Assembly: GCA_035389045.1 (NCBI GenBank)
Contig: DAOORA010000002.1
Span: 14,957-78,956 of the forward strand
DNA: 64,000 nucleotides
Direction of reading: 5' to 3'
Origin: Bacteroidales bacterium
Lineage (GTDB): Bacteria > Bacteroidota > Bacteroidia > Bacteroidales > CAIWKO01
The translations under genes were made by a program, and so were the position numbers. This document shows, in pieces, positions 4,247-32,542 of this stretch. Under the pieces are notes generated by a model that was not told where the DNA came from, made no database searches, and saw only the letters and a list, made by a program, of their open reading frames with translations. How positions within the stretch are numbered: position 1 is the first letter of the stretch; every line of letters starts with the position of its first letter.

Positions 4247-4451
4247 CTGTTAAATAATTTTGTTTTTTTGATACTTCTTAAAGAGGATCTTTTGTCATTT
4301 TAAGTGCCAGAATTTTGGTTTAAAGTTAATACAATATTTTAAAAATAAAGAAATAAATTAACTGTTTTTTTAATTTTCAACTCATAAAATAATATGCGGA
4401 CAGCGCACTGAATGAATCTTTTTAATATAACATGAATTTGTACAAATTGAA

Positions 4452-5225
4452 TTAATTAGTACCACCAGCGCCACCATTATCAATATTGAGATCACTGATA
4501 AAATCATGATATTCTTTTGAATACAAAATCAAGTTGTCAATTTTTGAAATAAAGAGCTGATGCACCTTAATAGCAGCAATTATGTTGGGAGTAAGCCCCT
4601 CCCTTTTAGTTTTCGAAAGAAGCAAACTTTCTATTTCTGTGGTACACCAAATCTTTCCGGAAATACGGTGAGAAGAATTCATATATGTGAGATTACCGAT
4701 ATCTCTTCCGATAAGGCTGGCGCCAACCAGTCCCAGGTACTCCCTGATAAGTTTATAATCATCACTTTTCACAAAGGGGCGGCTCTCCCCAAAAGCGCCT
4801 AAAGCGGCACAATAATTCTCGGATATCAAGAATTTCTCTATACATTCTGCCCAAAAAACCTCACTTTCGGGAACTAAACGTTTACATTGCTGAATTGACA
4901 TTTCGGATTCTGCCATATATTGATCCTTTTTTTCCAGCGACAAGGTGTGGTCTTCGCATACCCAATTGGTTAATAATGCAGACTTCATCCAATATAGACA
5001 CCCGTCCATTGGATTTAATTCGAGACATTTATTGATGTCATCGAGGGCCTGAAGAAATTTTTTTTGAAACCGGTAGCTAAGGCATCGTGCAGAAAAAAAC
5101 TCCCATCTTGGTTCTATATCGATTAACAAAGTATAGCGTTTTTCTGCTTCGTAGAATTGTCCGGAATCCTGCAGTCTTTGGGCATCAAGCCAAAGCTCAT
5201 ACAATACAAAATTATTTTTTTTCAT
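4452..5225 (-). CDS. TPR-like helical-repeat protein
   Basis: ORF 4452..5276. I prefer the internal Met (MKKNNFVLYELW...) at 5225, which lies 1 nt beyond the stop of the upstream Hsp70-like gene, over the track start, which overlaps that gene by 50 nt. TPR-like segments: SGQFYEAEKRYTLLIDIEP and FLQALDDINKCLELNP. Confidence 0.5.
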   Translation of the reverse strand: MKKNNFVLYELWLDAQRLQDSGQFYEAEKRYTLLIDIEPRWEFFSARCLSYRFQKKFLQALDDINKCLELNPMDGCLYWMKSALLTNWVCEDHTLSLEKKDQYMAESEMSIQQCKRLVPESEVFWAECIEKFLISENYCAALGAFGESRPFVKSDDYKLIREYLGLVGASLIGRDIGNLTYMNSSHRISGKIWCTTEIESLLLSKTKREGLTPNIIAAIKVHQLFISKIDNLILYSKEYHDFISDLNIDNGGAGGTN

Positions 5226-5226
5226 A

Positions 5227-7200: not shown

Positions 7201-7359
7201 AAGTTTGTTTTTTGGGGGTTAATAATTATGTACCTTCATGTTCAAATTTTTATTACGATTCATTTTTTTGCATTTTTGTTTATCGTCTATACCCATTTAA
7301 ACTGAATAATCTGTAAAAATTCACAAAAAGTAAAAAAATTTTAAAAAAAATAAAACCAG

Positions 7360-10320: not shown

Positions 10321-10389
10321 ACCCAAATTAAGCAATACTCTGAATGACCTTTTGGCAGATTCTCACACTATTGTTGCTTAATTTGGGTT
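10320..10389. repeat. Perfect 16-bp inverted repeat (possible bidirectional terminator or structured element)
   Basis: AACCCAAATTAAGCAA (10320..10335) and TTGCTTAATTTGGGTT (10374..10389) are separated by ~38 nt. The element starts in the CHAT gene stop codon and lies between convergent genes. Confidence 0.45.
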
Positions 10390-10418
10390 AAATTATCATT
10401 TTCGACCTGTCGTTTTTC

Positions 10419-10814
10419 TTACCAATTATTGAACAAATGCTTATTTTTTAAATCTTCTGCTGATATATCTGAATTTCTGCAATAACTAATAATTGTTATT
10501 AAGACGATTGAATACAAAACCGATGATACCATACCAAACCAGAAAATCATGTCAGTGTACCAGATATGGTTGATCTCCGGAAACCAACTATTGAAAAAGG
10601 CAGGAATAAAAACATATTTTACTAACAAAAAATAACCAATCTGACCTATTAAGGGAAAGAAACCTGTAACAAAAGATATTATACCAACAATGGTATTATA
10701 AACAAAAATAATCACAATGGCATCCCGAAAAGGAAAAAATAAGAATGCCAGGGCCATAATAGCCAGGCCGGTGACAAAATTGAAAGTCTTGATTTTTCTG
10801 ATTGTTGTTTCCAT
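10419..10814 (-). CDS. Small integral membrane protein
   Basis: 131-aa ORF with about four long hydrophobic segments (e.g. FVTGLAIMALAFLFFPF; IFWFGMVSSVLYSIVLITII). No recognisable motif. Confidence 0.4.
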   Translation of the reverse strand: METTIRKIKTFNFVTGLAIMALAFLFFPFRDAIVIIFVYNTIVGIISFVTGFFPLIGQIGYFLLVKYVFIPAFFNSWFPEINHIWYTDMIFWFGMVSSVLYSIVLITIISYCRNSDISAEDLKNKHLFNNW

Positions 10815-11168
10815 GGCTTAACATTTTAAGGTTAATAATATTGGGCATGTCTATCATATAATACTGATGTAAGCCTGAAAATTCACAAAATATTGAAAAA
10901 AAATGCAGCACTGTAATTGTATTAATGTTATCCTACTGACGAAAAAAGGATAACGTAATCATCATCCCAAAATACCTAGCTGAATTATCGAATTTATCCG
11001 TAAATTTGAGGAAGTTATTTTGAACGTTTTACATAGGAAAAACATCTAATAATTTCTGTCTATAAATAACTTTAAAAAAGTTCTAATCAGACATGGCCGT
11101 CTGAGGATCTAAATATCGCCCGTTTCAGCAATAATGATCTCATTACGAAGGCAAAAATGTATGATCGT

Positions 11169-11660
11169 TTATAATATTTGTTTAAAATATTTTTCCGGCA
11201 TTTCAAGTATTATTTTTGACCCTGTCAATGCGGCATCTATATCAGCAGAAAGAACTTTCAGCCCGGTTTTTTTTATAACATCTATTATTATCCCTTCAGG
11301 CAATGCCTTTCCGGTCAGATAAATACCTTCAGAACAGATTTTTTTAGTGAACCGCGAAGGAGTATTTTCAAGAATATTCTTTATTACTGCAATCACTCTC
11401 AAATTTATTTCTGCCACCCTGGGTAATGTTTTACAGTAAATAATTGTACCATTGGCTATAACACCAAATTCAATAAAATTTTCTTCGAAATTTAGTATCA
11501 TGTTTCCTTGATCATCAAAGGCATCAATGTCAAACCCCACAGCTGCCGCCATTAAAGTATAGATAATTAATACCTGTTCCGTTTTATTATTTAATAAAGC
11601 GTTTTTTATTTCTTTTATTTCAATGTCATTCATACTGCAGGGGATAAGAAATGTTTTCAT
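11169..11660 (-). CDS. Hypothetical protein; weak resemblance to the C-terminal half of actin-fold ATPases (MreB/Hsp70 superfamily)
   Basis: 163-aa ORF. The segment EGIYLTGKALPEGIIIDVIKKTGLKVLSADIDAALTGSKIILE resembles the MreB C-terminal block (G-vLTGGGALL..L...l.eetg.pV.vaedP...va.G). No N-terminal phosphate-binding half is present. Confidence 0.3.
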   Translation of the reverse strand: MKTFLIPCSMNDIEIKEIKNALLNNKTEQVLIIYTLMAAAVGFDIDAFDDQGNMILNFEENFIEFGVIANGTIIYCKTLPRVAEINLRVIAVIKNILENTPSRFTKKICSEGIYLTGKALPEGIIIDVIKKTGLKVLSADIDAALTGSKIILEMPEKYFKQIL

Positions 11661-11702
11661 ATTAACTGTTTAAATTATTTTAAAGACATCGAATAACTAA
11701 TG

Positions 11703-12247
11703 CTAATGAAAAATGTCGATTTTGTTATAATGTACTTCGGGATACCCACATATTAATGCACAAATGATTGGAATTGCTATCGTTAAAATAATTAGAATAC
11801 ATATGGTCAAAACATATAGACTTTCTTTTACTTTTTTGGTCAGATAAAAAAGCCCGAAAGCTGGAAATACTGCGCCAAAAAAGGAAACAATCAAAGCGGA
11901 TTTAATTTGTATTGTAGTGTCTAAAGGCATCCTGTTCCTATACCAAACAGCAGACAGTGATCCGTATGGGTTTTCATTAGCGTTTTTCCAACCAAGTATG
12001 AAAAAAAATCCAAAAACAATAGCTCCAATTATTATAAAATAATATTGATATCGTTTTTCTGAAATACCTTTTTTTTAATGATTAACAAAACCAAAAAAAC
12101 AATTACCCCGAAAAAAAATCCGGTCCACAATGAAATACCATATGGTATCCAATAATGATAAAATAAAAACGATGATAAAATCCCGGCAGAAAAAAAACAA
12201 CAAATCCCCGAAACAACAAAAAAAATCAATTGTCTAAAATATTTCAA
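11703..12247 (-). pseudogene. Multi-pass membrane protein gene apparently split by a frameshift at an A8/T8 homopolymer
   Basis: Two hydrophobic ORFs are listed (12032..12247 and 11703..11930). The gap between them is open and hydrophobic in the downstream frame (...YYFIIIGAIVFGFFFILGWKNANENPYGSLSAVWYRNR-MPLD...). One extra A in the run at 12069..12076 would fuse everything into a ~180-aa membrane protein. Confidence 0.35.
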
Positions 12248-12414
12248 TTATTATTGTTTTAACTGATTTAAGAATTCTTATTAAAATGTTTAGCAGCGCA
12301 TACTGCAACATATTTTATTTTCATTTTTGTAAAACCATGAAATTTGTGAAATTCGAAAATATTAAACTTTGCTAATTATTTGTCATTTTTTCCCGCAATT
12401 CAATTAATTTGTAT

Positions 12415-13236
12415 TTACTGTTGTATCAAAATTACTACCCTTGCATTTACATTTAAAACTTGCGAACCATTTTTATACTCTCTTAATGGTTCATTCCAAA
12501 ATTTATGTCCGGAAATAATCAAATTTGGTGGCGAATTTTCAATAGTTTTCGTTATCTCAATATTGCCTTTAAAGTTATCGAATTCGTAATCTGGTGTTTC
12601 GTGCAAAATCATTATGTCAGGTTTATCAGCAAGCATTTTCTTTAAACTTGAAAGATAATCACATTCATCAACTCTATTAGGTTTCAAAATATTGCCAATT
12701 ATTCCACTTATTCCTGAAATTTGAAGGCCATCTATTAATTTTGTGGTCTTGTGCAAAATGAAAATATTTTCTTGTTGTTTAAAGCGTGTCTCATCTAATT
12801 TAGTAATTCCGATTTTGTCGTGGTTTCCGTTTACACCAACGACCCATTTAAAATTATTTCTAAAATTAATATATACTTGTCTTACATCTCCGTAACCGCC
12901 ACGTTTATGAAGTGTTGCATATAAATCGCCGGCTAAAATCACACCTACTCTATTAGGTGAAATATTAAATTCTTTCTCAAATAAATTTCTTAAATATTCC
13001 GCAATTTGTTCTCCTAATAGTTTTGATTCTCCATTATTTTCCAGGTTTCCTTGCAGGTCAGAGGCGATAATCAACGCATCTATATCTTGTGATTTCCAAT
13101 TGAAAAATCCTTGGTGTATTGGCAAATATACATCCTTAATTATTCTGCTTCCATCATAATTACTATCGCGACGAGAGCCAACACATTTGTAAGAAAATGT
13201 ATTGAATGGAATTGTATCAATAGAAATTATCTGCAT
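12415..13236 (-). CDS. Calcineurin-like metallophosphoesterase
   Basis: 273 aa with ordered metallophosphoesterase motifs: ALIIASDLQG (variant of DxH), ILAGDLYA (GDxx), VGVNGNHD (GNHD), MILHETP and IISGHKF (GH). Confidence 0.65.
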   Translation of the reverse strand: MQIISIDTIPFNTFSYKCVGSRRDSNYDGSRIIKDVYLPIHQGFFNWKSQDIDALIIASDLQGNLENNGESKLLGEQIAEYLRNLFEKEFNISPNRVGVILAGDLYATLHKRGGYGDVRQVYINFRNNFKWVVGVNGNHDKIGITKLDETRFKQQENIFILHKTTKLIDGLQISGISGIIGNILKPNRVDECDYLSSLKKMLADKPDIMILHETPDYEFDNFKGNIEITKTIENSPPNLIISGHKFWNEPLREYKNGSQVLNVNARVVILIQQ

Positions 13237-13495
13237 TTATCAATTAATCTGTATGTATTTATATTCAGATAAATATGAATTTTTGAAATTAACGCAAACA
13301 AATTGGCGGGGGGTTTATGTTGTGGATATAGAAACAGTATCCTGCCAAGATTTACGAAAGTTGTATTAGATGCAGAAACGTTCGACCCCGCATTATCTCG
13401 GCAATTAAATAATCCGCCTGTTGAAGCGCCCCTCCGTCTGCGAGACAGAAAATGACTAACATTACTATGCTTAGATTGATTGTTTTTACTGAATA

Positions 13496-15208
13496 TTAAC
13501 ACCAATATCTTTCAATACAGAAGTCAGCTAAAACAGTTGTTCTCTTCTGCAGATCATCCTTGACAAATTTATTTTTGCTAGCAATTTCAGAAGAAAGATT
13601 CTTTGTCATTATAAAAAGGGATTTATCGTAGAACGGAATCTTACTAAGGGGAACAAGATTCTGGCATGCGGAGTTGAGCTTCTTTTCAAGAATTGTAAGG
13701 TTTCCAAACTTATGCTCGTAAGACAAAAAGTCTTCATTATCATTAAAACCTAATGCAACTGGTGAAAAATTTGGAGTTTGAGCTAAAATATGTTCTATCG
13801 CTGGTTCTGACTCCATAAATTTCATCAAATCATTAAGTGAGTATGACTTTTTTATTATTTTTTCACAATATTCAATGAAAACACCTCGCATTAATTGCGC
13901 ATTGCCATACATATTACCAAGAAGATTTGAACGGAATAAATCTTTTGGCATCCATGCAGCATTAAACCACCGCATCCAGTTTTCAATTTCTATTTCATTT
14001 TTAAATTGGATTTCATAAACGAAATCAGCAATATTACGCTTAGGATCGGTACCTCTAGTTTTATAGACTCTCACATCAATAAGTTCAATCAAATCAAAAA
14101 ATGTGTAATTCTGATCAGAGGGTAGTGCATTATCCAAAATACCTTTTGATTCCAACTTAATTACCAATGGATATAAACGTGCAGATAAATTAAGAATACA
14201 GAAAAGCTTATAGTACTTGACATTATTTGTTACACGTTCAATGACAGATTTGCAGCATTGGAAAAAATTGAACAAGCTAGATACATATTGCGTAATATAT
14301 TTTTCGACTTCAGATTTGAACAATACATTATCAGCAGTCATGTGTTTTGTTCTAAGGTCCGATAAGACTAATTTCAAATTTCTTAAAACATGTTCAGCAG
14401 TAGGGTCATAATCTCCATTATTAAAAGTTACAAAATGATATCTAAGGAGAGAATCTTCTGTAAAATTAACGTTACTAATAAGGTTAATACTATATTCTTC
14501 ACCTAAATGTTTTATGTCATCGTAAAGTTCGAAGATATCGCTAAAACTATTATTAATAGAATCGTCCAACTTCTTATCAAGGTATCTGTTTGAAAAGTAA
14601 ATAAGCAAACTTTTAACCTTTTCCATATTTGATAATAATTTACCTCTATCATTAACAGTCTGAAAAATTCTTATTGCATCCCCTTCTGAATTTTCGATAA
14701 AAACCATAATTTCAAGCTGTTCTATTGCACGGAGAAATTCCAATTTATTATTTAGCATGGACACCCGTGCTTCTATTTCGGTGTATGCTTCAAGCAAGTA
14801 CCGCTGACTTTTGTTTTCAGGTTTATTCTTAATTCCATTTATCAGGTCATTAAAAAATTGACTATCCCTATTCATGGGAACTAAACGATAATGATTTGAT
14901 TCTCTAATGTAAAACCTCTCATAATAATATTTATCATTTGAGCTAAGGTTTTTAATGATTGAATTTAAAATAAGAGTCAGTGTAGTAATTCGCTGCTGAC
15001 CATCAACGACGTAATATATTGAATCGTCATCTTTGCATTTTGATAGAACAATTGTACCTATATAGTGCGAAGTGCCAGATTCAATAGCTTCATTAAGGTC
15101 ATCAAATAAATCACGTACATTGTTTACTTCCCACGCAAAACCTCTTTGGTATTTGGGAATTTCAAAAAAACGACGATTAAAAAAATCGGAAACTTTTGTG
15201 CTTGACAT
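13496..15208 (-). CDS. GmrSD-like type IV restriction enzyme (DUF262 N-terminal, DUF1524 C-terminal)
   Basis: DUF262 hallmarks: FEIPKYQRGFAWE and YVVDGQQRITTL. The C-terminal His-Me-like block is AIEHILAQTP ... KFGNLTILEKKLNSACQN, typical of DUF1524. I prefer the Met-32 start (MSSTKVSDFF), by frame arithmetic at 15208, because the first 31 codons of the track ORF are AT-rich leader. Confidence 0.8.
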   Translation of the reverse strand: MSSTKVSDFFNRRFFEIPKYQRGFAWEVNNVRDLFDDLNEAIESGTSHYIGTIVLSKCKDDDSIYYVVDGQQRITTLTLILNSIIKNLSSNDKYYYERFYIRESNHYRLVPMNRDSQFFNDLINGIKNKPENKSQRYLLEAYTEIEARVSMLNNKLEFLRAIEQLEIMVFIENSEGDAIRIFQTVNDRGKLLSNMEKVKSLLIYFSNRYLDKKLDDSINNSFSDIFELYDDIKHLGEEYSINLISNVNFTEDSLLRYHFVTFNNGDYDPTAEHVLRNLKLVLSDLRTKHMTADNVLFKSEVEKYITQYVSSLFNFFQCCKSVIERVTNNVKYYKLFCILNLSARLYPLVIKLESKGILDNALPSDQNYTFFDLIELIDVRVYKTRGTDPKRNIADFVYEIQFKNEIEIENWMRWFNAAWMPKDLFRSNLLGNMYGNAQLMRGVFIEYCEKIIKKSYSLNDLMKFMESEPAIEHILAQTPNFSPVALGFNDNEDFLSYEHKFGNLTILEKKLNSACQNLVPLSKIPFYDKSLFIMTKNLSSEIASKNKFVKDDLQKRTTVLADFCIERYWC

Positions 15209-15328
15209 GATAAGTGATTTTTTACGGTTATTATGCACGAATATATAAATAATTATCGTGATGTAGTATTTAATAATAATTGTTTTTATAAATACGGTCA
15301 TTCATCAGTAAAATCCAATTCCGAAAGT

Positions 15329-15452
15329 TCAATATTCTTTGCGGATTTGCCTGGTTTTATTGGATTTTTTCTCTTTCGTTTTCTTCTTCTCCCACAGCCC
15401 CGCTGCCACTTCCTCCTCATGTATCTTGTTGTTCAACTCCAGCAGGTATATT
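15329..15452 (-). pseudogene. Remnant of the C-terminal ~40 codons of a second DISARM-type methyltransferase gene
   Basis: The minus-strand translation ...YLLELNNKIHEEEVAAGLWEKKKTKEKKSNKTRQIRKEY* matches the C-terminus of the 1356-aa MTase (RLLELNHKIHEEEVAAGLWEKKKNKEYKNKK...). The 66-nt core 15381..15446 differs at only 4 positions from 16452..16517. Confidence 0.65.
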
Positions 15453-15512
15453 TTACAAGTTAAACATATCAAAACCAAAAAGATTCTTATTTGGATCAGT
15501 ATGATCCTCTTT

Positions 15513-16355
15513 TTAACTTTTCATCTTTAAATCTTCATAATACTTACCATACGATTCCATGAACTTATTATAGCTCACAAGGTCTTCAAGTTTCTGACGC
15601 ATTTGAGGTTCCTTGTTAACATTGAAATCTGACGCATATATCCTATCTGCAACCAGACGCAACGCTTCCAGCCTGTTTTTAAGGGTTGGATGCTTAAACG
15701 TAAAAGTGTATTGCCAGCCTTGTGAGAAAAACTCTGATATTTCCTTTTCTGTGCTCTGTCCCGGGAATATTCGATGAACAAGTGCATCCTGTTTATTAAA
15801 ACAATCTTCGTATATATTAATATCATGGGTCACAAAAAAAGAATAGCGATCAGCATTGTATTCATTTAAATGAGTCAGAATATGGGAAAGAGTAATAAAC
15901 CGAAATAAGGAATCCCGATCACTGGCATAAAATTTTGCAAACAGGTCAGTATAGTTTGCCGGATTCACAGGCATAAGAAAAATGCTATGTCCGATTTCAT
16001 GCGCTACTATTGATAAGGTTTCGACCTCATTAAACGTTTCTAAAAAAAATGAATGGTAATAGATGTAAGAGCAATCAGGAGAGGAGAAACACGACATTAT
16101 GCTATTTGAATGCTCATTTATATCTTCTAATACAACGAATTTTGTACTGAGATTTTGTGTATTGATTATTTTATTTACTGCTTTTAAAACAGGATTTTCT
16201 ATATCTGAAATAACTTTTCTGTTTTCCCTAAGACCAATAATAGTTGGTTCATCGCCAATGAGTTTTTCAAAGCTTTTACCCGATTTAATTGTCGGTTCCA
16301 ACTCATAATATTCCCAGAGTTTCTTTTCAATATCCAAAATGAAATTGTCGAACAT
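15513..16355 (-). CDS. M48-like zinc metallopeptidase, soluble
   Basis: 280 aa. The zinc site is LSIVAHEIGHSIF (HExxH). NEYNADRYS downstream resembles the M48 ExxAD third-ligand region, and KHPTLKNRLEAL resembles the HtpX-type sHPpl.eRi..L motif. No TM segments. The start lies 6 nt after the MTase stop. Confidence 0.6.
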   Translation of the reverse strand: MFDNFILDIEKKLWEYYELEPTIKSGKSFEKLIGDEPTIIGLRENRKVISDIENPVLKAVNKIINTQNLSTKFVVLEDINEHSNSIMSCFSSPDCSYIYYHSFFLETFNEVETLSIVAHEIGHSIFLMPVNPANYTDLFAKFYASDRDSLFRFITLSHILTHLNEYNADRYSFFVTHDINIYEDCFNKQDALVHRIFPGQSTEKEISEFFSQGWQYTFTFKHPTLKNRLEALRLVADRIYASDFNVNKEPQMRQKLEDLVSYNKFMESYGKYYEDLKMKS

Positions 16356-16360
16356 AGTAA

Positions 16361-19300
16361 TCAGTTTTGAGTATCAAACAACCCCCCATACCCACCTTCC
16401 GGCTCCTTGGCCTGTTGGCCTGGGGACTTTTTATTTTTATATTCCTTATTTTTCTTCTTCTCCCACAGCCCCGCGGCTACTTCCTCCTCATGTATCTTGT
16501 GGTTCAATTCCAGCAGGCGTTTCAGTATTTCTTTGCGGGCTTCGGGGTGGATGGTGTAGCGGATTCTGTCGTTTTCGGGAAGGTAGTCTACTTCGTAGAA
16601 ATCGTGGCGCAAATCAATTCCGGCTCTGCCTTCGACGGGGCTCTGGCTGACGCCGGAATTGGCCCAGCCGTATGCTTCCAGCACTGCATTATCCATTTCC
16701 ACATGCAGCTCGCGCAGCTTTACTATGCCGGCTATGGCTTCTTCTATGGTGCACACGGCGGGCGTTTTTTGCAGGTGGTTCCATAAGTTCCAGACCTCTT
16801 TGCCGTACTGCTTTTCTATGGCTTGCTTGTTTAAGCCCTGCAAAGCAGCGCTCGTTATGCCGGGCTGTATTTCTTTAGCATGAAAAGCATTGTAGGTTTT
16901 GGTTAAACCAAGCTGCATGGAAAGCATTAATTGGCGGCGGTGTTCGTGGTAGGTTTCGCCAATACTATCTATTTTATTTTGTAATTCAATTGGAAGATTT
17001 TCTAATATTGGGAATGTATCAATACAATCTCTATTTGTATAACGAATATCAAATTTCATTGTAGATCCATATTTCCAAGCCCAGAGGTTATGCAATGTGG
17101 ATTGTAAAAAAGCATATTCCCAATATTCACTTCTTATCACAACAGAAGTTGCCACGTCAAAAATTGCCCCAACCTTTACGAACGACTGATTTACATATTT
17201 AGAAACACGACAAGAAACTAAAACACGATTAAGATGCTTGGTAGCATTATAAAGGGCCGGTCTTTTTTCACAATGTTGCCACCATTTAACTGGAAGAGGA
17301 TGCCTTAAAGCATATTCTCCAATTATTGGGTTTCCATCTTTATCCTCTTTCCACCGTGTACGCTCTGGTTTTACTTTTTCTTCCACAAGCTTATAGACTT
17401 CTTTATATTCTGATGCCTTTTCTATTGACCAATCAAAGAAATTAATCACATAACGACTTGGGTTCTGACTGGGGTTGCTATTTAAATCATCACCATTCAG
17501 GTATGGTTGGATCACTTCAGAGTTTTTAGGTTCAACCGAAATTAATTTCTCTGCTTCATTTTGTTTAAGCACAAAACCAAGCCCAAGGATGATACTGCCT
17601 TGATAACTTTTGCCATCATTGTTAAATAAAGGGAATGGGGTTCCTGTATTATCTGCCTCATCTAAAAAGGGTGAGATTTGATTAGTTTCTTTTCCATTCA
17701 AATAAAACTTCCCTTTCCAACCACCCTTGAAAATAGTTATTAATGAAACTTCAACGGCCGCCAATCCGGGCCATTTCATACTTTTAACAGCATGATTTAA
17801 ATTTGAACCATTTGCAATAATTTTTTCTAATCCAAATTCCCTTGCTTTACCTTGTGCTAAGGTGTTTGTAGAAATTAATGACTGATAACCTTTTTCTTTC
17901 AGAATTGAATTAATCCTAAGCAAGAAATAGACAACAAGGTCAACAGTTGCACCTTCAGTAAAGTAAAAACGAATCCATTCAAGGAAATTTTCGCCTAAAG
18001 CTTCTTTCAGGCGTCTATCTCCAAGAAATGGAGGATTTCCCAAAATACAATCAAATCCGCCATCTTGAAAAACCTCAGGAAATTCAATAAACCAATGGAA
18101 AAATTTCTTTTCCTGCGCCACTGCCACTGCCTTGGCGGTCTTCATGTTTTGCCATCCGGCATAGCCACTCAAAATGGTGCGAAACTCGGCATCGGTCATC
18201 AGCCGGCCCTGGTTTTCTTCGGTTTTGGGTATAAAAAACTGCGCCACCTGTGTGTCGGCCATCGCCTTAAGCCAGGTATAGCCTTTGCCACCAACAAACT
18301 TTTTATAGGCCTTTTGCTTTATGGCAATTTCTTCCGGAGTTTTTTCAGGCAGGTTGTTAAAGTTACGGTAATCTGCCATGGCTTCATTTACCGAGTTGCC
18401 GGTTGTGGCTTCAAAATCGGTTTTTAATTGTACCACATTTACTTCTCTGCTAACGCGCTCCATGCGGTTTTGTTTGGCAAGGTAAGCTGCATAAGTTACA
18501 TCAACCGTTTTTTCGTTGCGTGCCGTAACCAGAAAACTTTTCTCTTCGGGTGTGAGTGCCTTAAATGCTTCATCCGGTATTCCCTTATCAAGCTCTTCAC
18601 GGTGCACCAGCCCCACTATGCTGTCGCCGCATTTAATATGATGATCAAGAAAATTCAGGGGCTCGCCCGGGTTGTGGCTTTCGAGCCAGAGCGCCACTTT
18701 GCAAAGTTCCACTGCCAGCGGGTTTTTATCCACGCCGTAAATGCAGTGACGTATCACCAGCTTGATTGCAGCACGCGTAGCGGTAGGCGTGGGCTGGTCG
18801 CTTTCTTCCACCAGGGCGGCATAGCGGTCGGCAATGCGGCGGGCCGCACTCAACAAAATATGCCCGCTGCCACAGGCCACATCCGCCACTTTCAACGAAA
18901 GCAGATGCTGTGCAACAATTTTTTCACGGGCTTCGGTCTGGCTTTCGCCCCGCAGTTTTTTTTGTTCAATGTCTTTTTTAATCAGTTTCTCCCGGTCTTC
19001 GAGCAAATAATCCAGCGAGTGTTTTATCAACGGCTGCACCAGTTCTTCGGGCGTGTAGTGTGCTCCTTCCCTGCTGCGCTTTGTACCCGCAACAAAATCA
19101 AAGGTGTAATGGCTGCCAATTAATTTTATATCGGGATCGTATTCCAGCAAGCCCTCATACACCGAACCAAATTCCTCCACATTTAAAAGTTTATAATTGA
19201 TGGGTTGTGTGGTGCCGTTGGCAGCCGTAAACCACGACAGATTTTGGAGGGCATTGAGAAATGTTTTATTGTCAAGTCCGCAATTACCAATTATTCCCAG

Positions 19301-20431
19301 CGCATCATCGCCAAACAAATCGCCGTTCAGCGGTTGAATTTTTAATGCATCGCCGTATTTTTTATTTTCAAAAAACAGAAAGGTGTTTTGCAGGCTCAGC
19401 CATAAGTCGCTGTAGCGGCTGTCTTTGGAATAGTTGTTCCGGGTAAGGTTGCGCAAGCGCCCGAGGCCGTAGTATTTATAATAGATATCCCGTAACCGCC
19501 TTATCTCTTTGAGGTTTGTATTCGGGTACACGAGGTTTCTTTCCTCAATCACCATCAGGAACAGCAGGCGGTATATCAACCGCAGCAGGTATCTGTAATA
19601 TTCGTGTGCATTCAGGTTTCCGAGCTTTATCGCCTGTCGGAGTTCTTCGTTCCCGCTGAAATTTAAAAATCCGGTACCAAAAATTCTGATCGCGTTTTCG
19701 ACGGCTTCACTAAGTTTTTCACGAATGCGGGTGCCGCTTTCCAGTGCGTCGAGATGATAGGTTTCCATCAGACATTCCGGCCCGGCATGTTGCTTTTGCG
19801 GCATGCGGCTGGCGTGTAACAAGCGGAACAGCACAGCAAAGTCGGCGTACAACCCTTCGTCGAACATTCTTTCGAGGTCAACTTCCAGGTACGAAAGGCG
19901 GATGATGCGCCCGGAATCCCTGAGCAGGCGGATGACTTTTCCGTTGGTAACCAGCCCATACAAAAAGGGTTCGTTGTTATTGAGATACTCCTGAAGCAAT
20001 GCGTGCGGCGACATGCGCAGGCCATAAGGCTTTTTGTCAAGGTCTTGTTCCGAACCCACGATGATCACAGGAAAATTATCCATGTTTTCAGCAGGGTCGG
20101 TGATGTGGTAGGTTTTGCCCAGCACTGTCTGTGCCGATTTCTCGTAGCGGATATTGTACCCCATAAGGCTCAGCAGCGGCCCTATCCAGATGCTCCTGTT
20201 TTCCGATTCGCCGCTTTGTCCGTGACTGAGTTTTGAAAGTTTTAGTTTGTATCCTTTGTAGAAAGAAGTTGCCAGCGACCATGCCTGCGAAATTTCATCC
20301 CTTACCTTTACGGAGCTGTCGAGATTAAAATCCTTCGGTTTCTGCCCTGCAATATTATCATCCGAATCAAGCCGTGTCAGCAGGTCGGGTGAAATAATAT
20401 TCCCGAATATTTGTATGGATGGATAATTCAT
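16361..20431 (-). CDS. Large N6-adenine DNA methyltransferase (Eco57I/type IIG-like; DrmMI-like)
   Basis: 1356 aa. SAM-binding motif I is LKVADVACGSGHILLSAARRIA (nt ~18863-18895). Catalytic motif IV is CILGNPPFLGD (NPPF, nt ~18022-18036). There are a long N-terminal domain and a C-terminal putative target-recognition region. The start overlaps the SNF2 stop by 4 nt (ATGA). Confidence 0.85.
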   Translation of the reverse strand: MNYPSIQIFGNIISPDLLTRLDSDDNIAGQKPKDFNLDSSVKVRDEISQAWSLATSFYKGYKLKLSKLSHGQSGESENRSIWIGPLLSLMGYNIRYEKSAQTVLGKTYHITDPAENMDNFPVIIVGSEQDLDKKPYGLRMSPHALLQEYLNNNEPFLYGLVTNGKVIRLLRDSGRIIRLSYLEVDLERMFDEGLYADFAVLFRLLHASRMPQKQHAGPECLMETYHLDALESGTRIREKLSEAVENAIRIFGTGFLNFSGNEELRQAIKLGNLNAHEYYRYLLRLIYRLLFLMVIEERNLVYPNTNLKEIRRLRDIYYKYYGLGRLRNLTRNNYSKDSRYSDLWLSLQNTFLFFENKKYGDALKIQPLNGDLFGDDALGIIGNCGLDNKTFLNALQNLSWFTAANGTTQPINYKLLNVEEFGSVYEGLLEYDPDIKLIGSHYTFDFVAGTKRSREGAHYTPEELVQPLIKHSLDYLLEDREKLIKKDIEQKKLRGESQTEAREKIVAQHLLSLKVADVACGSGHILLSAARRIADRYAALVEESDQPTPTATRAAIKLVIRHCIYGVDKNPLAVELCKVALWLESHNPGEPLNFLDHHIKCGDSIVGLVHREELDKGIPDEAFKALTPEEKSFLVTARNEKTVDVTYAAYLAKQNRMERVSREVNVVQLKTDFEATTGNSVNEAMADYRNFNNLPEKTPEEIAIKQKAYKKFVGGKGYTWLKAMADTQVAQFFIPKTEENQGRLMTDAEFRTILSGYAGWQNMKTAKAVAVAQEKKFFHWFIEFPEVFQDGGFDCILGNPPFLGDRRLKEALGENFLEWIRFYFTEGATVDLVVYFLLRINSILKEKGYQSLISTNTLAQGKAREFGLEKIIANGSNLNHAVKSMKWPGLAAVEVSLITIFKGGWKGKFYLNGKETNQISPFLDEADNTGTPFPLFNNDGKSYQGSIILGLGFVLKQNEAEKLISVEPKNSEVIQPYLNGDDLNSNPSQNPSRYVINFFDWSIEKASEYKEVYKLVEEKVKPERTRWKEDKDGNPIIGEYALRHPLPVKWWQHCEKRPALYNATKHLNRVLVSCRVSKYVNQSFVKVGAIFDVATSVVIRSEYWEYAFLQSTLHNLWAWKYGSTMKFDIRYTNRDCIDTFPILENLPIELQNKIDSIGETYHEHRRQLMLSMQLGLTKTYNAFHAKEIQPGITSAALQGLNKQAIEKQYGKEVWNLWNHLQKTPAVCTIEEAIAGIVKLRELHVEMDNAVLEAYGWANSGVSQSPVEGRAGIDLRHDFYEVDYLPENDRIRYTIHPEARKEILKRLLELNHKIHEEEVAAGLWEKKKNKEYKNKKSPGQQAKEPEGGYGGLFDTQN

Positions 20432-23268
20432 GATTTTATTTCTATATCAGGTAATAAAATATAGATGCCCATCAGGTCCATCGGCAGCACGGCGCCCACT
20501 TCATATTCTTTTCCTTTCAGCGCCTTGCGGTATCTTTCATGTGCCTCTACCAGTTTTTCCGAACGTTCCCGGGCAATTTTATCCGCATCGGGTTGCCTGT
20601 TTTTTATGATTTCAACTTCCTTGTCAATAAAGCGGATTTGCTGCTCAGGGTCTATGTCTTTATTGACTCTTGCCGTCAGCAACAAGTCTTTTGCTTCATC
20701 GGGCCTGAAGGTTTTTCCGCTTGCGGGATTTCCTTCGTAACCCCACAACAGCATTTCTTCTGCAAGAAATTCGTGCGTTCCTTTGATTTGCTTGATAAGG
20801 TTTCTTACTCTGTATAAAACAATAATGGTTTTTTGTTTTACCGATGACGAAACAAATACGGCAGCCCTTGCCACTTTTTTTCGTTCGGCAGGGATAAATG
20901 CCAATCCGAGCAAATAATGACAGAGTTGTTCCACAAAAGGGTGATTCCTGCCCACATAGTAATATCCATCGGCAACAGGTGAAAAGAAGGTTATGCGGAG
21001 ATTTTTTTCGTTGGGAAGGTACGACTGAAGCTGTTCCGGCAACTGGGAAGGATAAATACGCCATCCTTTTTTTGCAGTTTCCATTTGTGCGCCTAAGAAC
21101 AGGAAGGCGTCCTGCACAAATTTCTCAACAGTTTTCGGCTCTCCAAGGGCTTCATCGGTTTCCTTCAGGTCTTCATCAATATTCAATTCTTTGACGATAG
21201 GATTTTGAGCAAACAGGTTTCTGATTTTAATTTCATCATTGATGGCCTTGTCGTATGCCCTGGTAACTTTCAGTTCCGATTCTTTCACTACCGGGTCCAC
21301 GCCCAGGTCGAGCGTGAGTTGCTGTGAATCTGTTATGGCATTTGGATTTAATATAACGGCATTAATAATCGCTTCCATGATGGATTGATTATTTTCCGGA
21401 AAAGGAACCGTGATGCCGTTGGCTTTTCTTATCTGGCGGGCTTTTTCGAGTAATACCCGCATAACAACGCCATCCATGGGATTGTCTTTTCCAAACAAGA
21501 GCGTGGTAACCACCTTTTCTGCAGGTTGTCCGTAGCGGTCAATACGGCCTTCGCGTTGTTCGAGCCGGTTGGGGTTCCAGGGAAGGTCGTAATGCAATAC
21601 CGCTGTAAAATAATCCTGCAGGTTAATACCTTCACTTAAACAGTCGGTGGCAAATATCAATCGTTTGGATGATTTTCCGATTTGTGCGATTCGTTCTTTG
21701 CGCAGATCATCGTTTAATTCGCTTGTGATCACTTCTACCTGAATATCAGGAAATTCTTTTTTGATAAGCGGTTGTAATAATTTGCCCAGATAATTCGCCG
21801 TTTGTATGAACCTGCAAAATACGATGGGCTGGTATCCTTCTTTGATCCACTTTATCAGCAAGGTTGCTGCGGTGGACGCTTTTCTGTCGTCTTTCAGGTT
21901 TCCCAGTTTCCCCAGTTCTTCCATCAGGAATTTCAGGGTTCTGTCTTCGGCAGAGGTAAATGTTGTTTTGGTAAACAGGTCGCCTGGTTCATTATCGCTT
22001 TCATTTCCGAAATCAGAATCAATTGCCGGGTTTATATCGTCATCAGCCATTTCAACCGTGCTGCCGGCTTCAGATGTTTTAAGCCAGCGGTTCCGGAGCA
22101 TTTCCACACCGGCATCGGGGCTTGACATCACACCCCGGATAAGGGAAAGGATGGTCCAATAGCGCATTTTTTGCTGGGGGCTTACCTTGCTGTTATCAAT
22201 GGTAACGCCTTTTGCGAATTTCCAGAGTTCATTATAAAAGCTTTTGTATGCCGGCGACAATTCATATTCTACTTCACCGGCTTCGCGTTGAGGGAAAGGT
22301 GTTTTTTCGTCCAGCCAGTCTTCAACATCTTTTCTTCTGCGCTGTATATAGTGAGCGGCAACTTTTCGTTTGCTGTCGTAATCATCGTTCAGAAGATCCA
22401 TTTCTTCAAATTCGGGTTTCAGCAAACCCAACAGCGATTGAAACTCATCCTGCTTTCCGCTATGCGGAGTGGCAGTGAGCAGTATCATGTGAAGGTCGTC
22501 TTTTTTTGAAAGTTGATGCAGCAGGTGATACCGTTGCTGCTGGCTTGCTGAAGCGCCCTGCGGCCGGGAACAGGTGTGTGCTTCATCCACAATAATAAGC
22601 TCAGGACATTCATTGATAAATCTGTTCTTGTATTTTTCCTGTTTGATAAAATCTATTGATAGAATCTGATACGGGAAATACTGAAACACGCTGAGGTCGC
22701 CGGGGACATCGCGTTCTAATTTTCCGATGGTTCCCGAACGTATTATCTCTGCATCAATACCGAACTTATCTCTTAACTCTTCCTTCCATTGCTCGCACAA
22801 ATGCGGCAGGCAGACAACGGCAAAACGCTTTATTTCTCCCCGGTCCAGCAATTCGCGAACCACCAGGAGGGCTTCCACCGTCTTCCCGATACCCACGTCA
22901 TCGGCAATCAAAAGTCTTTTTATGTCAAGTTTCAATGCCATGATCAGGGGAACAAGCTGATAGGTGCGCGGACGGACAGACAGCTTTCCAAACGACCGAA
23001 AAGGTCCTGCACCGGCACGGAAAGATAAACGGGACGCGTTATACAGCAAGCGGGCAGTTGCAAAATCACCCAGATCATTAGCGTCAGGCAACGGAAAATT
23101 ATCTAATTTGGGAACATCATCAGGGAAAGGAAGTTTTTTATAAATCCCGATGGATTCTTCCTCCGTACCGCCAAGAGGTTTCAACAATAGCAAATCCTCG
23201 TCCTGGGAAGGCAACACCACCCATTGGCGGTTACGCACTTTTACAATATTGCCGGTAGTATAATCCAT
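20428..23268 (-). CDS. SNF2-family helicase/translocase (DrmD-like)
   Basis: 946 aa with SNF2 motifs: LIADDVGIGKTVEAL (I), LIIVDEAHTCS (II, DEAH), ILLTATPHSG (III), SEGINLQ (V), NPNRLEQREGRIDRYGQ (VI). The start codon overlaps the stop of the upstream helicase gene by 1 nt. Confidence 0.85.
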   Translation of the reverse strand: MDYTTGNIVKVRNRQWVVLPSQDEDLLLLKPLGGTEEESIGIYKKLPFPDDVPKLDNFPLPDANDLGDFATARLLYNASRLSFRAGAGPFRSFGKLSVRPRTYQLVPLIMALKLDIKRLLIADDVGIGKTVEALLVVRELLDRGEIKRFAVVCLPHLCEQWKEELRDKFGIDAEIIRSGTIGKLERDVPGDLSVFQYFPYQILSIDFIKQEKYKNRFINECPELIIVDEAHTCSRPQGASASQQQRYHLLHQLSKKDDLHMILLTATPHSGKQDEFQSLLGLLKPEFEEMDLLNDDYDSKRKVAAHYIQRRRKDVEDWLDEKTPFPQREAGEVEYELSPAYKSFYNELWKFAKGVTIDNSKVSPQQKMRYWTILSLIRGVMSSPDAGVEMLRNRWLKTSEAGSTVEMADDDINPAIDSDFGNESDNEPGDLFTKTTFTSAEDRTLKFLMEELGKLGNLKDDRKASTAATLLIKWIKEGYQPIVFCRFIQTANYLGKLLQPLIKKEFPDIQVEVITSELNDDLRKERIAQIGKSSKRLIFATDCLSEGINLQDYFTAVLHYDLPWNPNRLEQREGRIDRYGQPAEKVVTTLLFGKDNPMDGVVMRVLLEKARQIRKANGITVPFPENNQSIMEAIINAVILNPNAITDSQQLTLDLGVDPVVKESELKVTRAYDKAINDEIKIRNLFAQNPIVKELNIDEDLKETDEALGEPKTVEKFVQDAFLFLGAQMETAKKGWRIYPSQLPEQLQSYLPNEKNLRITFFSPVADGYYYVGRNHPFVEQLCHYLLGLAFIPAERKKVARAAVFVSSSVKQKTIIVLYRVRNLIKQIKGTHEFLAEEMLLWGYEGNPASGKTFRPDEAKDLLLTARVNKDIDPEQQIRFIDKEVEIIKNRQPDADKIARERSEKLVEAHERYRKALKGKEYEVGAVLPMDLMGIYILLPDIEIKS

Positions 23269-26200
23269 TAATTTTTTACGGTTTTAAAAACATGAGGGTA
23301 TAATTTCACAAATTCGTCAAGTGGAGTCAGGTAATGCCATACTAATACTTCGTATCCCAGGTTCTCGAGACATTCTCGTTTTATGGCATCCGATTCCGCA
23401 ACTTTGGGAATGTCGTGCGGCGTTCCGTCGCAGAACACACAAACTTTTATTTCTTCGTTATATACAAAATCAGGAATGGTGTAGCAACCATATTTTGCCA
23501 TGTTCACCTGAGTGAGGTCGGGCAAACGCAGATGGTTCCTGTATAGATATTGCAGGAACTTTAATTCGGTGCTTGATTTTGGGTCAATGTTTTTTAATAA
23601 TTCCTGGTATTGATGTTCATAATCCTTGTAAAGCGAAGACCTTTTAATTTCGACATTGGCATTCATTAAGGTTTCAAGCGCATTTTTTATCAGATACCGG
23701 TCAATGATTTTATGATGCCTCTGGTTAAAAAAACTCAGGAGGTCTGTATAGGATGCGGCCCCGAATTGCTGCTGTTCTTCTTCAGATTTATTAAAATGAC
23801 AGATTTCCCATGCTGATTGAATCAGTTTTTTGAAATAGCTGACATCTTTTACCATTTGAGCAATCACGCCAAGACTGCCTTCGGCAGATTCGTATAAAAG
23901 CATATTGGGCTCTTCGGATGTCCCCATCAAAGAAACTCCGATTTCATTGCTTTCCACCTGAAACAGCGTTTCAAATCCACGCTTGATGGCATACATCAAC
24001 GTAGTAACACCGGCGTCAAAAGGATGTAAATTGAGATTCTTAGTAGGCTGAATGTATAAAGCATCGGCAGTATTCTCGGCATAAAGTTTAATTCTTTGAA
24101 CTTCTTCTGCATTTTGTGTCCGGTTTTCCAATTGAGCAGGCCTTTTCCAGAAACCGGTCTTCTTTCCCATCAAAAAGCCATCGCCTTCTTTCGAAACACG
24201 CCATTTGTTATTGATAAGAACAATTCTGGCAGCCGGCAGGTATTGCATCCGGAGAAAGATTTCGCCATCCACTTTTACAAGAATTTCTTCAATATTGTTT
24301 AACCCGCTCTGTAAGTAAAATGCGGTGGTGATATCGTATCCCAAAATCTGTCTTTCTTCTTCTTCGCAGGTTATGCGGTCATTCACATCGGCGCGAGATT
24401 CCCTGATCTCGATCATATCGCTGATCACTTTGCGGTTTGCGTTTTCTGTCAGATCGGCGCCTGTAACCGGACAAACATTTCGTTGCGTATCAGCGCCAAT
24501 CAATATATAACCCGATGCGGTTGAGATTTTAGCAGAAACCATAGGATTGTCCATTTCAGACCAAAGCATCTGATTTACCTTGTATTTTCCGCCACTGTGA
24601 TATATCGTATTATGCGGCCCAAATTCGCGCAGGGCTATAAATTTTGGCCTGGAGATATATTCTCCGCCATCTGAAGGGACAAACAGACGTACCGGCAGTT
24701 TGGTAAAACCATATCCCGGGAGAAAGCCCTCGGCAGCTAAATATCTGTATGGGTAAAACTCTGAAAGTTGATTGTTGCTTCCCGTTGTTTTGTTTCTCAA
24801 TAGCTCTATTTGCTTCTCTGCATAACGCCGGTCATTTTCCGCATTTCGTTTTCTTTCGTCGGTTCTCGGTATCCGGGGATCGCCAAGTATCTGGCTGGAG
24901 GCCTGCAACTGTTCAACGCATTTTTTGTAAATTTCCCTCCAGCGGTCAATGGCCCTGTCAAATGATTCGGGAGCTTGTGCCAGTTTTCTTTTTACCCAAT
25001 CTGATTTATACCATGTTGACGGAAGTTTTTCAAGGTTGGGAACTATATCTGCAATGGCCCTTGTGTAAATTCTTTCAAGATCTTCAATTACTTCTTTTTC
25101 GAGATGTATTGCATTTTTTGTTTCCTGTTTAAGCGACAGGCCAATGGGGTCGGCATCCATTTCGAGTATGTCTTCGATGGAATCATTCAATGCCCCTAAG
25201 TTTGTTCTGGATAAAAACAAGGCGTTTAAATGCGACCTTAGCAGTTCTTCCTGATTTAAATCCAGCTTGGGCGGACTTACGATTCCTGACACCATTTCTA
25301 TCCGGTTCTCAAAATAATGCCTGTCGTGCGGATTGGTATTTGAACAATAAGTTACGATTAAGGCCGCCTGCCCGCTTCTGCCGGCGCGTCCGCTTCTCTG
25401 CGCATAATTTGCAGGATTCGGAGGGACATTTCGCATCTGCACGATATTCAATTCCGAAATGTCAACACCCAGTTCCATGGTAGGCGAACAATACAATGCG
25501 CTTACATCACCTTTGATAAAATCTTCTTCAGCTTTTCTTCTTTTTTCATTTTTCACCTGCCCTGTATGTTCAGCACTTCTGATAGGTTTCATTTTTCCAA
25601 AATCCTGTTTGTAGAAATCCTGAAAAAATGTATTTACCGTGCGTTCACCTTGCTTTCTTGTGCGTATTCGCACCTGATCATACCAGGGTGTTTGTTCGTC
25701 ACCCTTTGCCCATAGCACATGATTGCCATTAAGTTGATATAAGTCCTGGTCTAATAAACCTTCCCGTTTTCTTAATATTCCGGAAGAACTGAGCAGGTTC
25801 AATAAAGTCGCAATCCAGTTATTTAATTCTTCACCCTTAATATCTTCACCAATGGATTTGAACTGTGCTTTTATAAATTTGCCATATGCACTCTGAGCGC
25901 TGATGCTTTGGGTATGTATGTTTTGTCTTTTGGAATACGGTTTATATACCCTGAGATAATTAGGAACCCGCAAATCATCCGTTTTATCAAGAGTCCAGGG
26001 TTCCTTTAAATTTTCAGAAATAACTTTTTTATTTACTTCATGATTATCATATAAATTGAAATGAAAGGCAAAGGATGTCCTGAAAAATTCAAGTGTTTGA
26101 AACAGTATGTATAATTGTTTTTCCTTACTGAATTTTTCGAAATTCGGTAAAGCGTTCCATTTATCTTTTTTTACATCTTCAGCCAATCCTTTGTAATCAA

Positions 26201-32515: not shown

Positions 32516-32542
32516 CACTCTAGCCAACTGAGCTAACGCCCC
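32469..32542 (-). tRNA. tRNA-Ala (anticodon GGC)
   Basis: The reverse complement reads GGGGCGTTAGCTCAGTTGGCTAGAGTGTCAGACTGGCAGTCTGAAGGTCATGGGTTCGACTCCCATACGCTCCA. It has a full cloverleaf, the anticodon loop CTGGCAG, the G3:U70 alanine identity pair and a GGTTCGA T-loop. CCA is not encoded. Confidence 0.9.

Follow-up and report, generated by a model that had tools for sequence, protein, structure and literature searches.

The window analysed here, a stretch of 64,000 nucleotides from a Bacteroidales bacterium (NCBI GenBank assembly GCA_035389045.1, contig DAOORA010000002.1, positions 14,957 to 78,956 of the forward strand), encodes a defence locus in which the gene for a DNA methyltransferase is followed by genes for an M48-like peptidase and a GmrSD-type restriction enzyme, and in which the 3′ end of the methyltransferase gene recurs between the two. 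All relevant genes of the locus lie on the minus strand. Its features, in descending window coordinates, are as follows:

23268–28412, minus strand: DEAD/DEAH helicase, 1714 aa, with an MZB (DUF1998) zinc-binding domain (Pfam DEAD, Helicase_C, ResIII and MZB; PADLOC DruE, 1.8e-89)
20428–23268, minus strand: SNF2-type helicase, 946 aa, DrmD/DpdE/ArmA-like (Pfam SNF2-rel_dom and Helicase_C; PADLOC DpdE, 7.9e-156, and DrmD, 1.7e-86)
16361–20431, minus strand: N6-adenine DNA methyltransferase, 1356 aa, Eco57I/MmeI type, DrmMI/ArmB-like (Pfam Eco57I, MmeI_Mtase and MmeI_TRD; PADLOC DrmMI, 2.8e-221)
16361–16518, minus strand: resident functional methyltransferase tail, the last 51 codons plus stop (ending LLELNHKIHEEEVAAGLWEKKKNKEYKNKKSPGQQAKEPEGGYGGLFDTQN and stop), with the repeat core at 16452–16517 and a tail of the class 'KKKxKEYK...', as in related loci L009 and L013
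15513–16355, minus strand: soluble M48-like zinc metallopeptidase, 280 aa, the cargo gene between the repeats (motifs, Pfam matches of its family, and a Ste24p profile match)
15448–15512, no strand: AT-rich spacer (GC 0.24) from the peptidase stop to the displaced tail, holding the palindrome GGATCAGTATGATCC at 15493–15507
15298–15447, minus strand: displaced 3′ terminus from a second allele of the methyltransferase gene, comprising some 49 codons and the stop, with the core at 15381–15446 and a tail of the class 'KKKTKxKKSN...'
13496–15208, minus strand: GmrSD-type (DUF262 plus DUF1524) type IV restriction enzyme, 570 aa (Pfam GmrSD_N, 3.1e-36, and GmrSD_C, 2.1e-16, both past their cut-offs; PADLOC HEC-06, 7e-44)

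The two helicases and the methyltransferase make up a three-gene defence core, the first gene of which, the 1714-aa helicase, resembles DruE, a DrmA–DrmB fusion, or ArmC, and has a homolog upstream in 61 of the loci fetched. Compared with the three-gene architecture of DISARM class 1 and ARMADA (PMC13463889), the SNF2 helicase, the N6-adenine methyltransferase and the DUF1998 helicase are all present by PADLOC and Pfam matches. The NCBIfam DISARM models score under their cut-offs, including DISARM_DrmD against the 946-aa SNF2 helicase (6.2e-93), and phospholipase D (PLD; DrmC), Vsr/DUF559 and UvrD-like components had no Pfam match in six genes at E < 0.01. Because PLD, Vsr and UvrD components were not detected and the NCBIfam DISARM scores are below cut-off, we label the core 'DISARM/ARMADA-like' only, and do not assign membership. 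For the downstream restriction gene, the paired GmrSD_N and GmrSD_C domains bear out the label 'GmrSD-like' given in an earlier note on this DNA, which was made from the sequence alone. A longer open reading frame (ORF) of 601 aa, beginning at 15301, is over-extended by 31 codons; the true start is placed at 15208, since alignments with homologs begin at residue 32 of the longer frame and the NCBI annotation gives 570 aa.

Positions 15365–15446 and 16436–16517 form a direct repeat of 82 nt at 88% identity, which a repeat search returned as the sole long direct repeat in the 13–19 kb section. Within it, 62 of 66 bases are equal between the core copies at 15381–15446 and 16452–16517; the earlier note had reported a 66-nt repeat with four mismatches, and the differences are exactly the four positions that it listed. 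In a degenerate pattern search allowing up to 3 further mismatches, the core has exactly two copies in the 64 kb, and none of 100 dinucleotide-preserving shuffles contained a match. Simple sequence is confined to the first 12 bases (TTCTTCTTCTCC, the Lys-rich stretch), and the longest exact run common to both copies is 23 nt. The two-copy count and the shuffles rule out a chance or low-complexity repeat. A widespread repeat unrelated to methyltransferases is ruled out as well, given that every blastn match of the lower copy in other loci falls on a methyltransferase 3′ end; low-complexity similarity and an unrelated widespread repeat had been named in the earlier note as grounds on which its proposal would fail. 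Three records agree at 100% identity over the 4.5 kb that surround the repeat: a Bacteroidales metagenome-assembled genome (MAG; GCA_029561235.1, NCBI), JGI 3300010355 and Logan SRR4244858. Between the copies there is a single ORF of real size, that of the 280-aa HExxH protein (15513–16355), so the peptidase gene is indeed the lone gene there, as had been noted; it begins 5 nt past the methyltransferase stop. Searches of 15000–16800 gave no known RNA family at E ≤ 1, and promoter and terminator scans of 13000–17000 were not usefully above shuffled background, the palindrome at 15493–15507 being the sole item noted.

The upper repeat copy falls within the final 52 codons of the methyltransferase ORF (1356 aa). 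Translation of the lower copy gives LLELNNKIHEEEVAAGLWEKKKTKEKKSNKTRQIRKEY followed by a stop, which confirms the earlier reading of this copy as a methyltransferase C-terminus. Its homology extends further than the limit first given: in an alignment with nine other methyltransferase tails, the fragment grows to about 150 nt (15298–15447). On its 5′ side the methyltransferase homology ends sharply at 15447/15448, and no methyltransferase sequence lies further upstream; on its 3′ side the homology runs through the Lys-rich stretch and a frame change to the terminal motif of the family (...(G)DLF.. and stop). The natural ancestral stop, TGA at 15298–15300, is 89 nt before the GmrSD ATG. The frame is broken in an A-rich stretch, and the original frame now terminates at 15329–15331. 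The apparent ATG of the 601-aa GmrSD ORF, at 15301, overlaps the ancestral stop, and the JGI annotation places a 40-aa ORF on the remnant.

The two window copies belong to different tail classes. The displaced tail has a 15-nt deletion and a KKKTKxKKSN motif in common with related loci L031, L037 and L051, and the resident tail (KKKNKEYKNKKSPG...GYGGLFDTQN) resembles those of L009 and L013. The copies are 94% identical in the core and about 65% identical in the tail, where they differ by class-specific indels. Of the four core differences, three (GAA/GAG, GTA/GTG and GCC/GCA) alter the third codon position and are synonymous; the remaining one is CAC/AAC. By these comparisons the displaced tail comes from a different allele and is no fresh duplicate; with its natural stop 89 nt from GmrSD, it keeps a downstream partner gene of its own. 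The GmrSD gene is presumed to be older cargo that belongs to the displaced tail.

The same signature is found in copies from four related loci. The ratio of non-synonymous to synonymous divergence (pN/pS) between copies, computed codon-wise over ungapped repeat blocks, is 0.09 in the window, 0.10 in L006, 0.15 in L040, 0 in L077 and 0.26 in L083; pooled over these five loci it is 0.19, with 46.8 synonymous against 33.2 non-synonymous differences. The observed synonymous fraction of 0.585 compares with about 0.33 predicted for an in-place duplication with one neutrally decaying copy (P = 1.6e-6), and with 0.57 predicted for two constrained alleles (omega, the non-synonymous to synonymous rate ratio, of about 0.2). 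Because the differences between copies are mostly synonymous, duplication in place followed by decay is rejected, and two functional alleles fit.

Related loci were collected by a one-genome-per-species scan with the last 250 residues of the methyltransferase, and hence chosen through its C-terminus; this gave 80 loci at 47–72% identity, mostly from Bacteroidota. For 79 of these the locus includes the methyltransferase stop; together with the window they were screened for further fragments, each with its own methyltransferase as query and the full ORF masked. Exactly seven fragments were found in 0.93 Mb of flanks, and no internal or inverted methyltransferase fragment was found in the same flanks. 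Six fragments are C-terminal (window, L006, L040, L064, L077 and L083), all downstream of the full gene and on the same strand, and in all six the full gene and the fragment are separated by 1–4 co-oriented cargo genes. Besides the window, tail scars occur in about 6–8% of the 79 related loci sampled. L042 carries the mirror image: ahead of the full gene, and in the same orientation, lies a 5′ methyltransferase fragment (residues 12–67, 91% identical; 5394–5561). In this locus (4425–6800) a minus-strand PIN/VapC-like ORF (6141–6539) lies between fragment and gene, and a 321-aa gene of unknown function precedes the fragment. In L140 (3931–4530) an orphan methyltransferase tail of 207 aa, 74% identical to that of the window, has a 20-nt overlap with the AAA_15 ATPase gene that follows; the 3.9 kb upstream of the tail contain no methyltransferase, and hold esterase and TIR-like genes instead. 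The evidence base is therefore six C-terminal cases plus these two others. Short methyltransferase-tail proteins were considered as a count of further orphans and rejected, as the choice of candidates favours short proteins and two of them (P0043 and P0045) lie at contig edges.

The cargo between gene and fragment is unrelated across loci. It comprises a Bro-N protein (PADLOC PDC-S13, 2e-117); a Ser/Thr kinase (PD-T4-6-like) with an unknown protein; a Schlafen/AAA protein with others; two unknown proteins; and, in the window, the peptidase. The units are compact and co-oriented, with gaps of 5–127 nt after the methyltransferase stop and of 8–308 nt before the fragment. Remnants begin at −119, −156, −221/−224, −281 and −533 nt from the stop, and are 71–435 nt long in all six. 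They retain their native linkage to the gene that follows: the window remnant lies 89 nt from GmrSD, that of L064 overlaps a DUF5677 gene, and that of L040 is followed by a terminator-like hairpin.

Fragments aside, the position behind the methyltransferase is hypervariable across the family. The first gene after it falls into 54 sequence clusters in 74 loci, almost always co-oriented and closely spaced, with annotations that include prokaryotic Argonaute (pAgo), GmrSD, PDC-M62A and HEC-03B ATPases, PD-T4-6 kinase, PDC-S13 and a PLD-like protein. The arrangement that the earlier note had suggested looking for, a methyltransferase gene followed by a DUF262 gene with no peptidase, was found in three loci (L024, L063 and L065), where GmrSD stands directly behind the methyltransferase. 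The methyltransferase end itself is conserved: a Lys-rich C-terminus (RLLELNHKIHEEEV...GYGGLF) is present in nearly all loci, and the last 600 nt are among the best conserved parts of the gene at the DNA level across loci, an outcome partly built in by selecting loci through the C-terminus.

Two loci, L040 and L077, allow an exchange to be followed closely. Their methyltransferases are 92% identical over 2 kb, after which the recognition domain is unalignable (L040 4234–5186; L077 2014–2993), which indicates recognition-domain swapping; this is the same segment that has low GC3 (GC content at third codon positions) in the window. They are again 83% identical through the methyltransferase tail and 96 nt beyond, and then carry unrelated cargo. 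On the far side they have in common about 125 nt plus the remnant: an intergenic block at about 97% identity (L040 8606–8730; L077 4765–4916) stands just upstream of the tail remnant in both. In L077 a perfect tandem duplication of 23 nt (GGGACGGGATTGCGGGACGTCCA), which contains the palindrome GGACGTCC, stands ahead of this block. No convincing terminal inverted repeats or shared ends were found around the L040 and L077 cargo. The L040 remnant is 93.8% identical to the main tail of L077, the two main tails being 83% identical to each other, and the two copies within L077 are identical at 70 of 71 positions, which suggests conversion.

Base composition also varies along these genes. The window methyltransferase is a compositional mosaic, GC3 being 0.29 across the target-recognition segment (16802–18001) and 0.61 over the final 300 nt (16361–16660). 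A gradient runs through the family as a whole (56 loci, L006–L085, plus the window): GC3 is 0.49 in the last 300 nt of the methyltransferase, 0.42 in the rest of it and 0.32 in the first downstream gene, the tail exceeding the cargo in 47 of 56 loci. Codon constraint and frequent recombination are both possibilities for its origin.

The cargo of the window belongs to a very small peptidase family, with 8 representatives among 1.84 billion clusters. As a single sequence it had no match in PDB, NCBIfam or PADLOC and fell short of Pfam Peptidase_M48 (PF01435; 18.8 bits against a cut-off of 20.3), so that it is resolved only by its family profile. At the family level the earlier label 'M48-like' holds: the 8-member alignment conserves the motifs HE(I/V/L)GH, SE(Y/F)NADR and HPxxxxR, seven of the eight members match PF01435 at E < 0.01 (best 9.2e-9), and the family profile matches Ste24p (4il3) in an alignment spanning the HExxH and HP..R motifs. 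A 42%-identical homolog (P0002) is encoded directly behind a homologous methyltransferase tail and before a PtuA-like ATPase, with no scar, and a 32%-identical member (L138/L139) stands behind an N6_N4 methyltransferase that has DpnII and ParB_N genes among its neighbours. A link to DNA methyltransferases of whatever kind may thus be typical of the family. To judge from these contexts, the peptidase is a putative methyltransferase-associated accessory.

Taken together, the segment 15298–15447 is probably a recombination scar, namely the displaced and frameshifted last 49 or so codons of a second, diverged methyltransferase allele. The displaced fragment, its origin from another allele, the recurrence of such fragments in the family and the hypervariable position behind the methyltransferase are shown; which way the event ran, and by what enzymes, is what we infer. 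The starting locus would have had a methyltransferase gene ending 89 nt upstream of GmrSD, and the incoming DNA the M48-like peptidase gene behind a homologous methyltransferase 3′ end. The left crossover would have arisen from pairing in conserved methyltransferase sequence. The right end would have been joined without homology, at a point 66 nt past the stop of the peptidase gene and, on the resident side, 150 nt short of the methyltransferase stop. The methyltransferase would thereby receive its end from the incoming tail, the peptidase gene following 5 nt later, and the old tail and GmrSD would be pushed downstream. Since homology ends at the stop codon, a join upstream of the resident stop would preserve the resident tail, now a short direct repeat on the far side of the new cargo. 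One possible route is homology-facilitated illegitimate recombination of linear DNA; another, giving the same product, would be single-crossover integration of a small circle carrying tail and cargo, and the circle itself may arise by recombination between copies. Anchored pairing with a non-homologous join would therefore leave fragments that are terminal, direct, short and tied to the older downstream gene, with an occasional 5′ mirror case. The scar is probably without present function. The two copies can presumably still recombine with each other, whether by converting one another, by exchanging cassettes or, rarely, by deleting the peptidase gene.

The earlier note had offered two options: that the peptidase and a new methyltransferase tail were recombined in front of an older tail, or that the conserved methyltransferase C-terminus is an anchor for exchanging downstream accessory genes. 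Both survive testing, as two sides of one process. For the former, the differing tail class, the three synonymous core differences out of four and the separate stop 89 nt before GmrSD speak in favour. The latter is supported by five more loci that carry unrelated cargo, the mirror case, the L040/L077 exchange and the hypervariable slot.

An insertion with long target duplication, in which the peptidase gene entered a single methyltransferase 3′ end and about 150 nt were duplicated, the copies then diverging in place, would agree with several properties of the insert: direct repeats of more than 30 bp (66–82 nt) and no mobility gene, as in the criteria of PMC2853133, a compact layout with spacers of 5 nt and 66 nt, and the near-identity of the L077 copies. 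It predicts mostly non-synonymous change in the dead copy, whereas the pooled synonymous fraction is 0.585 against 0.33 (P about 1e-6). Moreover, the window core is 94% identical as against about 65% in the distal tail, where the indels match the other tail class in other genomes, and neutral divergence at the distal rate would give about 16 core differences, whereas four are seen; we regard this explanation as unlikely. Allelic divergence would also be accounted for by tandem paralogous systems (A with the peptidase, B with GmrSD) reduced by a deletion that left only the methyltransferase tail of B, and several related systems often occupy one defence island. Random deletion ends in a system of about 12 kb predict remnants of varied length, whereas all six are 71–435 nt long and hold no SNF2 or helicase pieces; that six remnants should all be ≤540 nt has a chance of about 1e-8 under a uniform model. 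With no second full or half methyltransferase in 80 loci besides, we hold tandem systems to be somewhat less likely still.

Site-specific integration is suggested by the layout itself, in which a gene completed by an element-borne 3′ end, a cargo and a displaced 3′ end follow one another as in a classic attL/attR pair. The peptidase cassette would lack an integrase, its att site would copy the methyltransferase 3′ end, and it would be mobilised in trans, for example by the large serine recombinase encoded at 30956–32515, 15 kb away beside a tRNA-Ala gene; that the cargo units are compact and co-oriented agrees with this. In none of the six loci, however, do the repeats enclose a recombinase gene, remnant starts vary from −119 to −533 nt from the stop with no fixed crossover core, there are no terminal inverted repeats and no conserved core (the longest exact identity in the window being 23 nt), and the 5′ mirror case of L042 would require a second site, so that the explanation is improbable. 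An assembly artefact, in which two strains with differing methyltransferase tails were stitched into one contig, is brought to mind by the origin of the records, which are all metagenome-derived, the three identical ones probably from one sample. Yet a repeat-induced chimera would switch inside the shared core, and would not make a non-homologous junction at 15447/15448. The final k-mers of assemblers are usually longer than 23 nt, the length of the longest exact repeat here. With 100% identical sequence from three pipelines and the same architecture in five unrelated assemblies, an artefact is scarcely credible.

Several points weigh against displacement by an incoming tail and cargo as we have set it out. 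In the window alone the synonymous excess (3 of 4) is not significant (P = 0.10). Every scar-bearing locus comes from a MAG or a metagenome assembly, and neither of the two isolate genomes covered has a scar; multi-fragment arrays are absent, none of 80 loci having more than one fragment. The GC break at the methyltransferase stop was tried as a sign of a recent join and rejected, as the break is family-wide, and it does not date the event. As the 42%-identical peptidase homolog also stands behind a methyltransferase of the same family, the methyltransferase–peptidase pair may be old and may have come with the whole system. The order of events could also be the reverse, a fragment with the old tail and GmrSD having been joined behind an existing methyltransferase–peptidase pair. 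No pre-insertion sister genome or contig was found, and the nearest GmrSD relatives are at most 62% identical, none of them behind this methyltransferase family. Likewise, among 48 metagenome loci with GmrSD homologs (47–59% identical), none has a methyltransferase of the family upstream, which would be the ancestral arrangement. The nearest GmrSD in the protein database (62% identical; L142, 571–11692) ends an operon of SNF2, Eco57I-type methyltransferase and SMC-like ATPase genes (Hma-like), whose methyltransferase is only a distant relative, and by such contexts the GmrSD clade of the window appears to ride behind helicase–methylase systems of differing families. Viral contigs held no relative of the tail, and a plasmid collection only distant single-copy matches (≤41% identity).

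The locus lies among other genes of a probable island. At lower coordinates (5227–13236) are genes for an Hsp70-like protein (5227–7200), a TPR-CHAT protein of 986 aa (7360–10320), an MreB-like fragment (11169–11660) and a metallophosphatase with a PADLOC PDC-S10 match (12415–13236). At higher coordinates, the 3′ end of the large serine recombinase gene (30956–32515; Resolvase, Recombinase and zinc-ribbon domains) overlaps an opposite-strand tRNA-Ala(ggc) gene (region 30956–32542), beyond which follow tRNA-Gln and then rimP–nusA. The defence island as a whole, or an integrative element, probably has its boundary at this junction.

Integrative elements that enter tRNA or protein genes at their 3′ ends bring a 3′ end of their own as a substitute, and leave the original one as a direct repeat on the far side. 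The window resembles them in that the target gene is restored by incoming sequence and the displaced 3′ end forms a direct repeat, and differs from them in that the insert has no integrase, remnant starts vary and there is no fixed core. Elements that target 3′ ends are mentioned by Furuta, Abe and Kobayashi (2010; PMC2853133), whose own subject is insertion with long target duplication of restriction–modification units. There, as here, defence genes lie between direct repeats of tens to hundreds of bp, in inserts without transposase or integrase; those repeats are 93–100% identical to the empty site, whereas the copies described here differ like functional alleles (pN/pS 0.19).

A closer parallel of layout is C-terminal displacement in rhs, contact-dependent inhibition (CDI; cdiA-CT/cdiI) and type VI secretion system (T6SS) effector–immunity loci (Kirchberger et al., 2017; PMC5361080, citing Jackson et al., 2009, and Koskiniemi et al., 2014). 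In both cases an intact gene is followed by a direct 3′ fragment of the same gene with its own downstream partner gene, and the new module stands beside the intact gene with the older one pushed downstream. The mechanism proposed for T6SS and rhs loci combines a homologous anchor in the conserved part with an illegitimate join (homology-facilitated illegitimate recombination), later swaps taking place by homologous recombination (PMC5361080). In those systems the exchanged part is the toxin tip of the protein together with the immunity gene, whereas here the conserved tail only anchors and a separate defence gene varies; arrays of several orphans are common there, in contrast to one remnant per locus here. 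Defence genes embedded in larger systems, including BREX–BrxU, have been catalogued and loosely ascribed to a 'genomic sink' (bioRxiv 10.1101/2024.01.29.577857, 2024), a text in which the words recombination and remnant do not occur. The present loci agree with that catalogue in having co-oriented accessory genes nested in or attached to helicase–methylase systems, with the window GmrSD matching HEC-06 and cargo of related loci matching HEC-03B, PDC-M62A and PDC-S13. They differ in that the accessory genes stand at the end of the system, not between its genes. No account of displaced methyltransferase tails marking cargo capture in helicase–methylase defence systems was found in the literature library searched, which is weak evidence for novelty.

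The nesting of accessory defence genes in BREX, DISARM, Hma and type I restriction–modification systems is known and has been used for discovery, with their route of arrival left open. Tail scars offer a concrete and testable route: homology-anchored capture at a conserved gene end, with displacement of the prior tail and its cargo, which extends the principle of C-terminal displacement from polymorphic toxins to immune systems. More speculatively, and in our estimation rather doubtfully, the conserved 3′ (perhaps also 5′) ends of DISARM/ARMADA-type methyltransferase genes might be a general docking site for defence cassettes, at which compact tail-plus-cargo modules circulating between distant bacteria are captured, stacked or exchanged. 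The GC3-enriched tail could then be the footprint of unusually frequent recombination. If true, this would be an integrase-free counterpart of integron and rhs cassettes, and would explain the embedding of defence genes in larger systems. If tail scars prove general, they would allow acquisition events in defence islands to be ordered, help to predict which neighbouring genes arrived recently as cargo (the rare M48-like peptidase family linked to methyltransferases, for example), and guide cassette swapping at such loci.

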